9,877 bases of DNA. Origin: a virus. Taxonomy: Duplodnaviria; Heunggongvirae; Uroviricota; Caudoviricetes. The stretch's first letter is position 1, and each line of letters begins with the position of its first letter. This document shows, piece after piece, positions 6,812 through 9,561 of the stretch. The stretch spans positions 1 to 9,877 of IMG/VR virus record IMGVR_UViG_2531839661_000013; one strand, written 5' to 3'. The notes under the pieces are model-generated. The model saw only the letters and a program-made list of their open reading frames with translations, was not told the DNA's origin and searched no databases. A program made the translations under genes and the position numbers.

Positions 6812-6833
6812 GCCGGAGCAATCCGCCTTTTTT
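6812..6833 (+). terminator. weak intrinsic terminator after the PerC-like gene
   Basis: Stem CGGA, GNRA loop GCAA, stem TCCG, then a T6 run at 6828-6833. The stem is short, so confidence is low. Confidence 0.35.
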
Positions 6834-7027
6834 GCGGGTCCTCCTGGTGGGGTGGCCTGAACACGGGGCGGAGGGGCGCGGAAAAAGGCGCATTTTTTGA
6901 TTTTTATGGCACCATCACCACCACTATAAGCTATTGATATATTGAAGAATAAAAATTTTTAGTGTCGAATCAGGTTGTTTTTTGTTCATCGCCGGAACGT
7001 TCCCGAAAGCATTTACAAAAAAACAGG
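6823..7027. repeat. intergenic homology block A (paralogous to 9360-9561)
   Basis: The first ~78 bp (CCGCCTTTTTTGCGGGTCCTCCTGGTGGGGTGGCCTGAACACGGGGCGG...GCGCATTTTT) are near-identical to 9360-9434. Further islands are shared downstream (GATTTTTATGGCACCATCACC, GTTGTTTTTTGTTC, TTTACAAAAAA). Confidence 0.6.
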
Positions 7028-7261
7028 CGCAAAAAAAGCGCCCCCGATTGCTGTTACCGGAGGCGCTTTTACACGACAAAGGAGTTTTTATCGCCAGGAT
7101 GACGAGTCTTAATACTGCTTCAATGGCAAAAATGCGTCAATAACTTTGCCTTTCTGAGAATAATCAGAAAAAACATAATCTGATTTTCAGGTAGAAAATG
7201 ATTTATCTATTACTTTTATCGATCAATAATGATGCCCGTTAATCAAAACGGAGGCGGATTT

Positions 7262-7456
7262 ATGCCAGAGAACAACACCAGAAAGCCGGATAAAAGTGCC
7301 ACGGTACACATAGACGCCGGAACTATGGAGAAGATCGAACGCTATCAGCAGTTCATCAAAGATAATCACCCGGGTATGCCAGTGCCCACGAAAGGACAAA
7401 TCACACGCAGCGCGGTTGAATACTGGTACAGGGCAACGTTAGGAGCCTGGCTATGA
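7262..7456 (+). CDS. hypothetical small protein (64 aa; alternative start 7229), possibly RHH-like
   Basis: RBS GGAGG (7250-7254) 7 nt before ATG 7262. Its stop overlaps the ATG of the capsid gene (ATGA at 7453-7456). The strand-helix-helix-like segment is only suggestive. Confidence 0.5.
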   Translation: MPENNTRKPDKSATVHIDAGTMEKIERYQQFIKDNHPGMPVPTKGQITRSAVEYWYRATLGAWL

Positions 7457-9342
7457 AAACATGGTTTTCCATTAAGGCTATGGCAGATGTTGTACATGTG
7501 CGCATTTATGACGAGATCGGCGGGTACGGTGTAAAGGCATCGGCACTTACTGACGAGATCAACGCGTGCGGTAATGTGTCTGAAATCCATCTTCGCATCC
7601 ATTCACCTGGTGGCGACATCTTTGAAGGGCTGGCTATCTATAACGCCCTGAAAAATCATCCGGCAAAGAAAATTGTACACATTGAAGGCATGGCGGCTTC
7701 TATGGCCTCGTTTATTGCCATGTGTGGCGATCACATCGTTATGCCTGAAAACGCGATGATGATGATACATGCCCCCCGTGGTGTTACTGCCGGAGTGTCG
7801 GGCGACGTTCGCCGCTTTGCTGACCTGATGGACAAGCTGGGCGACACGATGGCGGAAACCTACGCCGGAAGAACGGGCAGGAGCAAACAGGAAATCACCG
7901 CCATGATGGAGGCGGAAACCTGGATGGATGGCAATGAGTGTAAGGCTAACGGCTTCGCAGATGAGGTTATAGCCGCGATTACAGCAATGGCCCGAATTGA
8001 ATCAAAACGAATCGGAGATTTTTCAAATATGCCGGAAAAAATTAAAAGCATGATCAGCCAGAAAACTACCAGTGGCGAACAGGAACGACTTAACGGCATC
8101 CGTGAATTGTTTGGCACGTTCAACGGAAGATATAACGACCTGGCTATAAGTTGTCTTGCTGATTCAGAATGTAGCGTTGAGAATGCACGCGAACGCCTTT
8201 TACTCGCTATGGGTAAAGAATCAACGCCAACAAACAAAACCACCCCCGCAAATCTTTACTACGCGTACACGGATAACGGCAACATAACCGGCGATGCAAT
8301 GCGCCAGGGGCTTAATGCGCGTCTTGGTCACGAACGGGCCGAACGCGGTAATCCTTACGCCATGATGAGCCTTTTCGATATGGCACAGGCATCATTAACC
8401 CATCGTGGTATAAGCACGGGCAGCTACGGCACACGCTCGCAGATAGTAAACGCGGCATTCACCCACAGCAGCAGCGATTTTACCGATATTCTTGCTGGTG
8501 GCGCTGAAAAATCAGTGCTTGCAGGCTGGGAGCACAGCGGCGAAACATTCCGCCAGTGGACGAAAAAAGGTTCCCTTTCAAACTTCCGGGAAGCCCGCCG
8601 CGTTGGTATGAATGGCTTCTCAACGTTAAACAAAGTGCCGGAAGGGGCAGAATATAAATACATCACCACCAGCGATCGCGGTGAACCCATCGCGCTGGCT
8701 ACTTACGGGAATATTTTCAGCATTACCCGCCAGGCGATAATCAATGATGACCTTGATCAGTTATCAACGGTGCCAATGGCTATGGGCCGTGCTGCATCAA
8801 GAACGGTGGGAAATCTGGTTAATCTGGTGCTTACAGGCAACGTAAAACTTTCTGACGGAATAGCGCTGTTTGACAAAAAACACAGCAACCTGATTGAAGC
8901 AGGACTGACAACACCGGGACTTAGTGCAGCACGTCACCTGATGCGCACACAGAAGGACAAAAATGGCGAAGTGCTGAATATTGCGCCTAAATTCCTTTTA
9001 GTTCCGGCAGCACTGGAAGATCGCGCGTTGCAGATGATTAACTCAACCGCACCTTTCGGGGCTGATAAAAACAGCGGGATCTTTAACCCGTATCACAAGC
9101 TACTTGATATCATCGTCGATCCCCGCCTTGATGATATCAGCGAAAAACAATGGTACATGCTTTCCGCACAGGGAACGGACACAATCGAGGTGGCTTATCT
9201 TGATGGCAATGACGAGCCTTACCTTGAACAGCAGGAAGGTTTTATCGTTGACGGCGTGGCCTGGAAAGTCCGTATTGATGCAGGTGTGGCAGCTCTGGAT
9301 TATCGCGGTATGGTCAAATCAGGCGGGACAGATTCACTCTGA
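7453..9342 (+). CDS. fused prohead protease (ClpP/S14-like) and HK97-fold major capsid protein
   Basis: 629 aa. N-terminal ~180 aa has ClpP-family motifs: IHSPGGD, catalytic-serine context EGMAASMASF, and MMMIHAP. The C-terminal ~350 aa has the composition and length of an HK97-type major capsid protein. RBS AGGAG 7 nt upstream and a strong terminator follows the stop. Confidence 0.85.
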   Translation: MKTWFSIKAMADVVHVRIYDEIGGYGVKASALTDEINACGNVSEIHLRIHSPGGDIFEGLAIYNALKNHPAKKIVHIEGMAASMASFIAMCGDHIVMPENAMMMIHAPRGVTAGVSGDVRRFADLMDKLGDTMAETYAGRTGRSKQEITAMMEAETWMDGNECKANGFADEVIAAITAMARIESKRIGDFSNMPEKIKSMISQKTTSGEQERLNGIRELFGTFNGRYNDLAISCLADSECSVENARERLLLAMGKESTPTNKTTPANLYYAYTDNGNITGDAMRQGLNARLGHERAERGNPYAMMSLFDMAQASLTHRGISTGSYGTRSQIVNAAFTHSSSDFTDILAGGAEKSVLAGWEHSGETFRQWTKKGSLSNFREARRVGMNGFSTLNKVPEGAEYKYITTSDRGEPIALATYGNIFSITRQAIINDDLDQLSTVPMAMGRAASRTVGNLVNLVLTGNVKLSDGIALFDKKHSNLIEAGLTTPGLSAARHLMRTQKDKNGEVLNIAPKFLLVPAALEDRALQMINSTAPFGADKNSGIFNPYHKLLDIIVDPRLDDISEKQWYMLSAQGTDTIEVAYLDGNDEPYLEQQEGFIVDGVAWKVRIDAGVAALDYRGMVKSGGTDSL

Positions 9343-9348
9343 CAACAA

Positions 9349-9370
9349 GGCGGCACCAGCCGCCTTTTTT
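9349..9370 (+). terminator. Rho-independent terminator after the capsid gene
   Basis: Stem GGCGGC, loop ACCA, stem GCCGCC (9349-9364), then T6 at 9365-9370. Confidence 0.7.
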
Positions 9371-9561
9371 GCGGGTCCTCCTGGTGGGGTGGCCTGAACA
9401 CGGGGCGGGCGGCGCGGAAAAAAGCGCATTTTTGTGATTTTATCGTCATCATCATGTGTTTAACCTGTTGTTTTTAATGTGGTTGATGCAAAAAAGATGA
9501 TGATTGCGGTTAATTTTTGTTCGACATCTTTTAGCGTGACAGATTCTTTACAAAAAATCTG
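9360..9561. repeat. intergenic homology block B (paralogous to 6823-7027)
   Basis: Core at 9360-9434 is near-identical to block A. Shared downstream islands include TTTACAAAAAAT at 9547-9558. Confidence 0.6.

Follow-up and report, generated by a model that had tools for sequence, protein, structure and literature searches.

Two cos-like sites in direct orientation flank the capsid module of a PICI-type satellite island of Escherichia coli

Introduction

Satellites with two cos sites are already known. The Escherichia coli island EcCICFT073 has two cos sites whose function was shown experimentally (PMC6092414, PMC6739421), and two putative cos sites were noted in SaPIbov4 (PMC6092414). The cosB of EcCICFT073 is not of the phage kind and needs RppA-TerS, TerS being the small terminase subunit (PMC6739421, PMC9026076). 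The satellites 11capE (preprint 10.1101/2022.07.18.500453) and SaPIbov5 (PMC6092414) each carry a near copy of the cos region of their helper, and the stretch that 11capE has in common with its helper measures 258 bp at 90% identity (preprint 10.1101/2022.07.18.500453). How satellites of the cos type choose or switch helpers is only partly understood, and the one studied E. coli case uses Rpp together with a non-phage cosB. Here we describe a pair of cos-like sites on a satellite island of about 10 kb, of the phage-inducible chromosomal island (PICI) type, that makes up nearly all of a 9,877-nucleotide stretch of DNA (IMG/VR record IMGVR_UViG_2531839661_000013, positions 1 to 9,877), hereafter the window.

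The cos regions of lambda and the lambda-like phages, known from the work of the Feiss laboratory (PMC4669245, PMC9026076), supply the framework for the comparison. The cosQ element has 7 bp and is highly conserved, positions 7-12 of cosN are free to vary, and a complex cosB has an IHF site between oppositely oriented R repeats in the layout R3-I1-R2 (PMC4669245). Lambda and phage 21 have the same cosQ and cosN, yet discriminate more than 1000-fold through the contacts between TerS and cosB (PMC4669245).

A first-pass annotation of the window had drawn attention to two homologous intergenic blocks of about 200 bp around the capsid module, and had suggested that they might be duplicated late promoters or activator-binding regions, or structured RNA elements. 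Comparison with phage genomes led to a different assignment.

Results

Two homologous blocks flank the capsid module

The two blocks, 6823-7027 (block A) and 9360-9561 (block B), lie on the same strand as direct repeats 2537 nt apart, as had been described. Their cores (6823-6897 and 9360-9433, 64% G+C) are identical at 72 of 75 positions with one 1-nt indel, and the first 49 nt of each (6823-6871 and 9360-9408) match exactly, giving two matches against none in 200 shuffles. The AT-rich sequence downstream (6898-7027 and 9434-9561), in which further conserved islands had been reported, is 57% identical between the blocks; its alignment score of 2 lies about 5 standard deviations above that of 500 shuffles (-28 +/- 5.6). 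Between the blocks are a small open reading frame (ORF) at 7229-7456 and a gene encoding a fusion of a ClpP-like protease with the major capsid protein (7453-9342), both on the plus strand, and the blocks thus bracket the capsid module.

The blocks correspond to the cos region of lambdoid phages

A search of phage genomes returned lambdoid phages as matches to both blocks. In CP-1639, in VT1-Sakai and in the host prophage of locus L007, the homologous sequence is found after Rz and directly before the small terminase gene, terS (phrog_141). In mEp460, it is found after Rz at the end of the linear record, and the record of mEp460_4F5 was linearised 5 nt from the predicted nick. This is the interval between the lysis genes and terS in which cos is situated in the lambda-like homologues.

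Alignment with lambda placed the blocks at its cohesive-end junction. The lambda junction reads ACGGGTCCT-N23-ACG|GGGCGGCGACCT|CGCGGG, and the window blocks read GCGGGTCCT-N23-ACG|GGGCGG, with lambda's heptamer at lambda's distance. The heptamer GGGTCCT, which we take to be cosQ, is present on the plus strand at 6836-6842 in site A, where it is identical to lambda 48473-48479, and at 9373-9379 in site B; in each site, 23 nt separate it from the predicted nick, as in lambda. The nick positions in both sites were assigned by homology. On this basis, the predicted cosN cohesive-end segment of site A is GGGCGGAGGGGC (6866-6877, plus strand), preceded by ACG as in lambda, and that of site B is GGGCGGGCGGCG (9403-9414, plus strand), which is identical to the CP-1639 sequence and has CG on both sides as in lambda.

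The variation among homologues largely follows the pattern known from functional cos sites. Both blocks have the sequence ACG|GGGCGG, as do lambda and every homologue from a phage or satellite; the left half of cosN is thus invariant, and the variation falls in the right half. In cosQ, the heptamer is kept in the phages, in lambda, in every copy of site B, and in part of the copies of site A. Lambda, three phage types, and the B copies of the satellites vary in agreement with the rules of PMC4669245; the exception is the cosQ of the common form of site A. The extra base in the cosN of site A was considered as a possible defect and rejected, functional phages differing in the same way.

Given the alignment with lambda, the position of the homologues in phages, the pattern of variation, and the anatomy of the flanking cosB-like sequence detailed below, both blocks are very probably cos sites or direct derivatives of cos sites. 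The sites also depart from lambda in several respects. The right half of cosN differs and its length varies among sites, the IHF site is about 17-20 nt nearer cosN than the best lambda match, the R sequences are different, and the sites are carried by a satellite in which no terS gene follows.

A cos core is also present at 1099-1183 of the phage record ON470578.1, Escherichia phage vB_EcoS-606R10; with a length of only 16,180 bp, this record may represent a satellite that was deposited as a phage.

The two sites carry cosB-like flanks of different phage types

The core spanning cosQ and cosN is common to sites A and B, and their cosB flanks differ. By its identity to CP-1639 and 1720a-02, the cosB-like flank of site A (6878-6990) is of the CP-1639 type; positions 6830-6990 of block A are 93.8-93.9% identical to these two phages, as far as the terS start codon. 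The flank contains an R3-like element, CACCATCACCACCAC (6910-6924), a match to the IHF consensus, TAAGCTATTGATA (6927-6939), a possible R2-like element (6960-6970), and the sequence TTTTTTGTTC (6978-6987). The distal part of block A (6991-7042) is common to block B and VT1-Sakai; it includes TTTACAAAAAA at 7012-7022 and ends in the hairpin AGGCGCAAAAAAAGCGCC (7025-7042). The flank of site B (9415-9563) is of the VT1-Sakai/Stx2-phage type, being about 83% identical to VT1-Sakai and several Stx2 phages, and contains an R3-like CGTCATCATCATG (9444-9456), an IHF-like TAACCTGTTGTTT (9461-9473), an inverted R2-like GATGATGAT (9496-9504), TTTTTGTTC (9514-9522), and TTTACAAAAAA (9547-9557). Both flanks and the distal part of block A are annotated on the plus strand.

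The IHF scan that identified TAAGCTATTGATA and TAACCTGTTGTTT found the consensus in every site, at positions +59 to +63. In the B type, the inverted repeat ATCATCATC/GATGATGAT brackets the IHF site, which parallels the R3-I1-R2 layout of PMC4669245; in the A type, CACCATCACCACCAC has only a weak partner repeat. The R repeats are predicted TerS-binding elements. An IHF site with R-like repeats on its flanks, clearest in the B type, may be a further likeness to lambda-like cos, beside the GGGTCCT heptamer, the 23-nt spacing, and ACG|GGGCGG (PMC4669245, PMC9026076).

The TerS proteins of the two phage groups diverge mainly in the N-terminal DNA-binding region. They are 78% identical overall and, by our own count, 57% identical over N-terminal residues 1-60 and 91% identical over the rest. 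Locus L007 offers a natural pair. The host prophage of locus L007 (O157:H7 strain ECP19-198) encodes a TerS 100% identical to that of VT1-Sakai and has a Sakai-type cos, and the B site of the satellite embedded in it is of the same type.

The satellites of loci L007 (1-13000) and L011 (1-13600), both related to the window island, lie inside terL of a lambdoid prophage with its own ClpP-protease/capsid fusion gene, which is the "helper-embedded satellite" configuration of preprint 10.1101/2022.07.18.500453.

Hairpins before the blocks and probable exchange between them

Each core had been described as lying directly after a terminator. For block B this was confirmed, since the capsid gene is followed by a perfect hairpin, GGCGGC-ACCA-GCCGCC (9349-9364), and a run of six T residues, together an intrinsic-terminator-like element (9349-9370, plus strand) supported by RNA folding. 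Block A is preceded only by a degenerate version, GCCGGA-GCAA-TCCGCC with six T residues (6812-6833, plus strand), which follows perC and has one stem pair broken, as in a weakened intrinsic terminator; at this position the stem of the relatives is intact, with a perfect TCCGGC. The promoter/terminator scan missed the plus-strand hairpin at 9349-9370, although the sequence meets the stated rules of the scan and folding shows the hairpin.

The window's A and B have a common 1-nt deletion (GGGGT-GGCC), absent from the other seven aligned sequences, and the 49-nt identical tract begins within the terminator stem of site A. Because the left part of A thus equals the B of the same island down to a private deletion, and because the tract starts inside A's own terminator stem, recent gene conversion from one site to the other is probably the best explanation for the sequence identity over 49 nt.

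The cos-capsid-cos module is widespread in E. coli

The module comprising both sites and the capsid genes (2.8 kb) was at least 80% covered at one place in 143 of 5426 complete E. coli genomes, and the full-length rows that were sampled had both blocks in one piece at 97-99% identity. The islands that carry the module differ in backbone, encoding either PerC or a single-stranded DNA-binding protein (SSB) and either RepA or a primase, and they occupy several integration sites. The layout recurs in island L012, whose two sites are of other cosB types and both match the consensus.

Three forms of site A were distinguished. The first, in RM9387, is fully phage-like including cosQ and cosN. The second is the most common and is considered in the Discussion. 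The third is that of the window, found in 2 genomes at >=99% identity. By alignment, site A is also present in loci L007, L008, and L011 with a variant cosQ.

The nearest phage homologues of the capsid fusion are the phages with the matching cos sequence, yet their amino acid identity to it is only about 51%. Since the cos blocks track these phages far more closely than the capsid protein does, the sequences suggest that, whatever the history of the capsid gene, the sites have been maintained or renewed in keeping with helpers. The possibility that a single phage supplied both site A and the capsid gene was also considered; it is unlikely, the site being about 94% identical in nucleotides and the capsid about 51% in amino acids.

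Islands lacking the capsid module

It had been proposed that the blocks, as direct repeats, could promote deletion of the capsid module, and this idea is supported by the existence of islands with the expected structure. When a synthetic junction lacking the capsid module was used as the query, four genomes proved to have PerC, a single site, and ORF93 (the last gene of the island, described below) within 1.36 kb and no capsid gene. One of these capsid-less islands, L015, occupies the same tRNA-Pro site as the window island. The single site of another, L014, is a hybrid in which the upstream context and the cosN variant of A are followed by the flank of B. Homologous recombination between A and B would yield such a product, and so would cyclisation of a molecule packaged from B as far as the next A. 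The type of cosB has no bearing on termination, and mismatched cohesive ends stay viable (PMC4669245). The history may also have run in reverse, with a capsid cassette inserted into an island with a single cos.

Gene content of the island

A 99.4%-identical copy of the island is present in E. coli strain 10 between tRNA-Pro/yejM and yejO, and the element is a PICI-type satellite at tRNA-Pro. Its gene order is the Gram-negative PICI layout of PMC6092414. A tyrosine integrase gene (1-1242) is followed by a gene for an AlpA-like helix-turn-helix protein (1739-1945), by Icd-like and small ORFs and then a DUF4222 protein, and by a RepA-type helicase gene (4673-6082). After the helicase gene come AAAGTGAGG iterons and a 91-amino-acid ORF, and the PerC gene (6532-6804) precedes block A immediately. 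The inter-site segment (7229-9342, plus strand) holds the small ORF, which encodes 75 amino acids and belongs to phrog_4934, and the capsid fusion gene. ORF93 (93 amino acids, phrog_1561; 9596-9877, plus strand) is the last gene and occupies, after site B, the position equivalent to that of terS.

ORF93 is the conserved last gene of the window-island family and of EcCICFT073-type islands, with a homologue also at L009 3374-3655. It had 953 close homologues, almost all of them from E. coli among the matches listed, and a scan of GTDB species representatives gave only one locus, in Shigella, in a different and larger module. Pfam yielded no family for ORF93 or the 75-amino-acid ORF, and PHROGs yielded only families of unknown function. 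The AlphaFold model of ORF93 is a three-helix protein (pLDDT 74.7, from a shallow alignment); compared with the folds in the Protein Data Bank, it had no match (best E 1.5) and none to a winged helix. Sequence searches of the Protein Data Bank for an Rpp- or TerS-like protein with the ORFs at 9596-9877, 7262-7456, 6267-6542, and 4377-4676 gave no such protein; in particular, there was no match to the solved RppC chains 6HLK and 6HN7 at E<=10 (E<=1 for 4377-4676), a comparison that a very divergent Rpp could escape.

Several other features of the window were observed. The AAAGTGAGG-type iterons are repeated through 6077-6290, directly 3' of the RepA helicase gene, an arrangement to be expected of a PICI replication origin. 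Two small minus-strand ORFs (2067-2270 and 2616-2843) have their start codons and the leaders upstream of them within a 75-nt direct repeat (2260-2334 and 2833-2907, 83% identical); the two genes may be paralogues whose regulatory or leader region has been duplicated. A palindromic ACATGGTAATTACC-like motif occurs three times between divergent genes (2498-2556), and these motifs are probably operator sites of the regulatory switch of the island. Where two small overlapping ORFs meet, nine consecutive G residues (3900-3908) may form a tract prone to slippage. Site A is separated from the following ORF by an untranslated spacer of about 200 nt (7025-7228), which begins with hairpins (7025-7072) and is conserved in L007, L008, and L011; its only Rfam match was STnc130, below threshold.

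Discussion

With two cos sites established for EcCICFT073 and a helper-like cos already reported for 11capE, the pair described here is a variation on a known theme. Like EcCICFT073, the window island is a PICI with PerC, a small ORF, and a capsid gene, ending in ORF93, and it has two cos sites with phage-like cosQ and cosN. The arrangement of the sites differs. Those of EcCICFT073 have a lambda-type cosN and are inverted; about 750 nt lies between them, and they enclose a single small ORF downstream of the capsid genes, with no cos site between PerC and the capsid gene, whereas those of the window are direct, 2537 nt apart, flank the capsid module, and both have a phage-like cosB. No homologue of Rpp was detected in the searches of the island's ORFs. 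The reports on 11capE and SaPIbov5 describe one helper-like cos, in contrast to the two found here, which are of different helper types and placed around the capsid gene. In the E. coli Nissle 1917 island (L010), which is of the EcCICFT073 type with a lambda-E-like capsid gene, we observed three cos-like sites, at 9057, 11520 (plus strand), and 12398 (minus strand). The SSB gene is immediately followed by one of them, which is Sakai-like, and a terS gene lies between the remaining two, a lambda-type pair in inverted orientation.

We consider it on balance probable that the two blocks form a direct-orientation cos pair on a PICI-type satellite and that either of two helper groups could package it, a judgment that is a compromise between two estimates, a high one for the cos origin of the blocks and the lower one given below. 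Both sites combine a cosQ-like heptamer with a predicted cosN nicking region, 23 nt further on, and with a cosB-like flank of about 110-150 nt in which R-like repeats, only weakly paired in site A, bracket an IHF site. By analogy with lambda, TerS of the helper phage would bind cosB while IHF bends the DNA, the large terminase subunit would nick cosN, and concatemeric satellite DNA would be threaded rightwards into the capsid until a downstream cosQ-cosN was cut. The most likely benefit would be packaging by either helper group, with A serving CP-1639-like phages and B serving phages of the VT1-Sakai/Stx2 type. That both sites function and widen the helper range is a more tentative proposal, to which we assign slightly less than an even chance.

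Several observations weigh against this interpretation. Cutting, packaging, and transfer at both sites are predictions from sequence. The distance from GGGCGG to the conserved CGGAAAAA is 12, 13, or 14 nt among sites, which makes the predicted cohesive-end length uncertain. The predicted recognition helix of TerS, HRQTVAAR, is identical in both phage groups, the differences falling in the wing region, and the two cosB types may therefore not be strongly discriminated. The cos of the L011 host prophage is of a third type and matches neither satellite site. In the common form of site A, found in 88 genomes at >=99% identity, cosQ reads AGGTACT and cosN is GGGCGGAGGGGC, a variant absent from the phage, and site A in these islands may be defective or serve initiation only. 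Finally, deletion of cos2 from EcCICFT073 increased transfer (PMC6092414), so that a second cos is not necessarily beneficial.

The last two points are also arguments for a rival explanation, which we regard as doubtful but still a serious contender, that only site B works. Site A would then be a relic or by-product of recombination with a helper at cos, tolerated or mildly harmful in the manner of EcCICFT073 cos2, or else a site for initiation only, its cosQ having been lost to avoid premature termination. Beyond the altered cosQ and cosN of the common form, position B adjoins the conserved last gene, ORF93, and the flank of B is kept in the capsid-less islands. Against this, the flank of A has a perfect IHF consensus and an R3-like element and is about 94% identical to phage cosB in at least 133 genomes, and A is phage-like throughout, cosQ and cosN included, in islands of the RM9387 type. 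In the window, moreover, a consensus cosQ at A appears to have been restored by conversion from B, and in L012 both sites, though of other types, have the consensus.

A more elaborate form of the cos-pair interpretation, in which the two sites constitute a functional two-part device with tuned sites, a detachable capsid cassette, and extra termination points, seems to us unlikely. Site A would be tuned to one helper type, its cosQ often disabled so that it initiates packaging without terminating it, and B to another. Packaging or recombination between the sites would make the capsid cassette detachable, and the products running from B to A would be mini-satellites without a capsid gene and with a hybrid cos, of the kind represented by L014 and L015. 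The asymmetric spacing would provide additional termination points and so relax the genome-length constraint of cos packaging.

It is very improbable that site A is a decoy whose phage-type cosB titrates or misdirects the helper terminase, to the detriment of helper packaging rather than in the service of satellite packaging. Satellites do commonly interfere with helper packaging (PMC6739421), most islands have at A a phage-like cosB with altered cosQ and cosN, and the searches of the island ORFs detected no Rpp-like interference protein. There is no evidence of defective cutting, however; titration would be weak with just one or a few additional copies of cosB on each satellite genome, unless replication reached high copy number; and the A sites of RM9387-type islands are fully phage-like.

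The earlier suggestion that the blocks are duplicated regulatory DNA, with late promoters or sites for PerC, AlpA, or another activator coordinating the capsid gene and ORF93, now has very little to recommend it. Both blocks do lie upstream of genes and downstream of hairpin-plus-T-run structures, the spacing TTTTTGTTC-N24-TTTACAAAAAA is conserved ahead of each downstream gene, and the PerC gene adjoins. A sigma-70 scan of 6000-9877, whose reach does not extend to activator-dependent promoters, returned a single site; it lies within the capsid gene, and neither block held a promoter-like sequence. All the conserved islands recur in the cos regions that precede terS in phages, whose established function is packaging, and about 200 nt with a hairpin separates block A from the next ORF. 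The core also proved not to be particular to satellites, as the search for further copies matched 2293 of 5426 E. coli genomes, largely in prophages, an outcome that the first-pass annotation had itself named as counting against its proposal. The other early suggestion, that the GC-rich core, which follows a T-run and is near-identical in both copies, is a structured RNA such as an antiterminator or processing element, is scarcely credible, because on neither strand of either core was folding better than that of shuffles (z -0.2 to -1.7), the predicted structures differ between the copies, an Rfam scan of the whole window at E<=10 gave only sub-threshold chance matches (the best in a block being STnc130, at 26.7 bits against a gathering score of 55), and homologues vary as the cosQ/cosN rules predict and not as base pairing would require.

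For annotation, these results indicate that conserved "intergenic repeats" of such islands should be compared with phage cos regions before they are called regulatory. For the biology of the satellites, they suggest that this island family apparently relies on plain mimicry, its own capsid gene being enclosed by phage-type cos sites of two different kinds. Should both of them work, the pair would be a simple genetic route to a wider helper range, one that includes Shiga-toxin phages. The pair would likewise account for the gain and loss of capsid modules between satellites, and it predicts which ends virion DNA should have.

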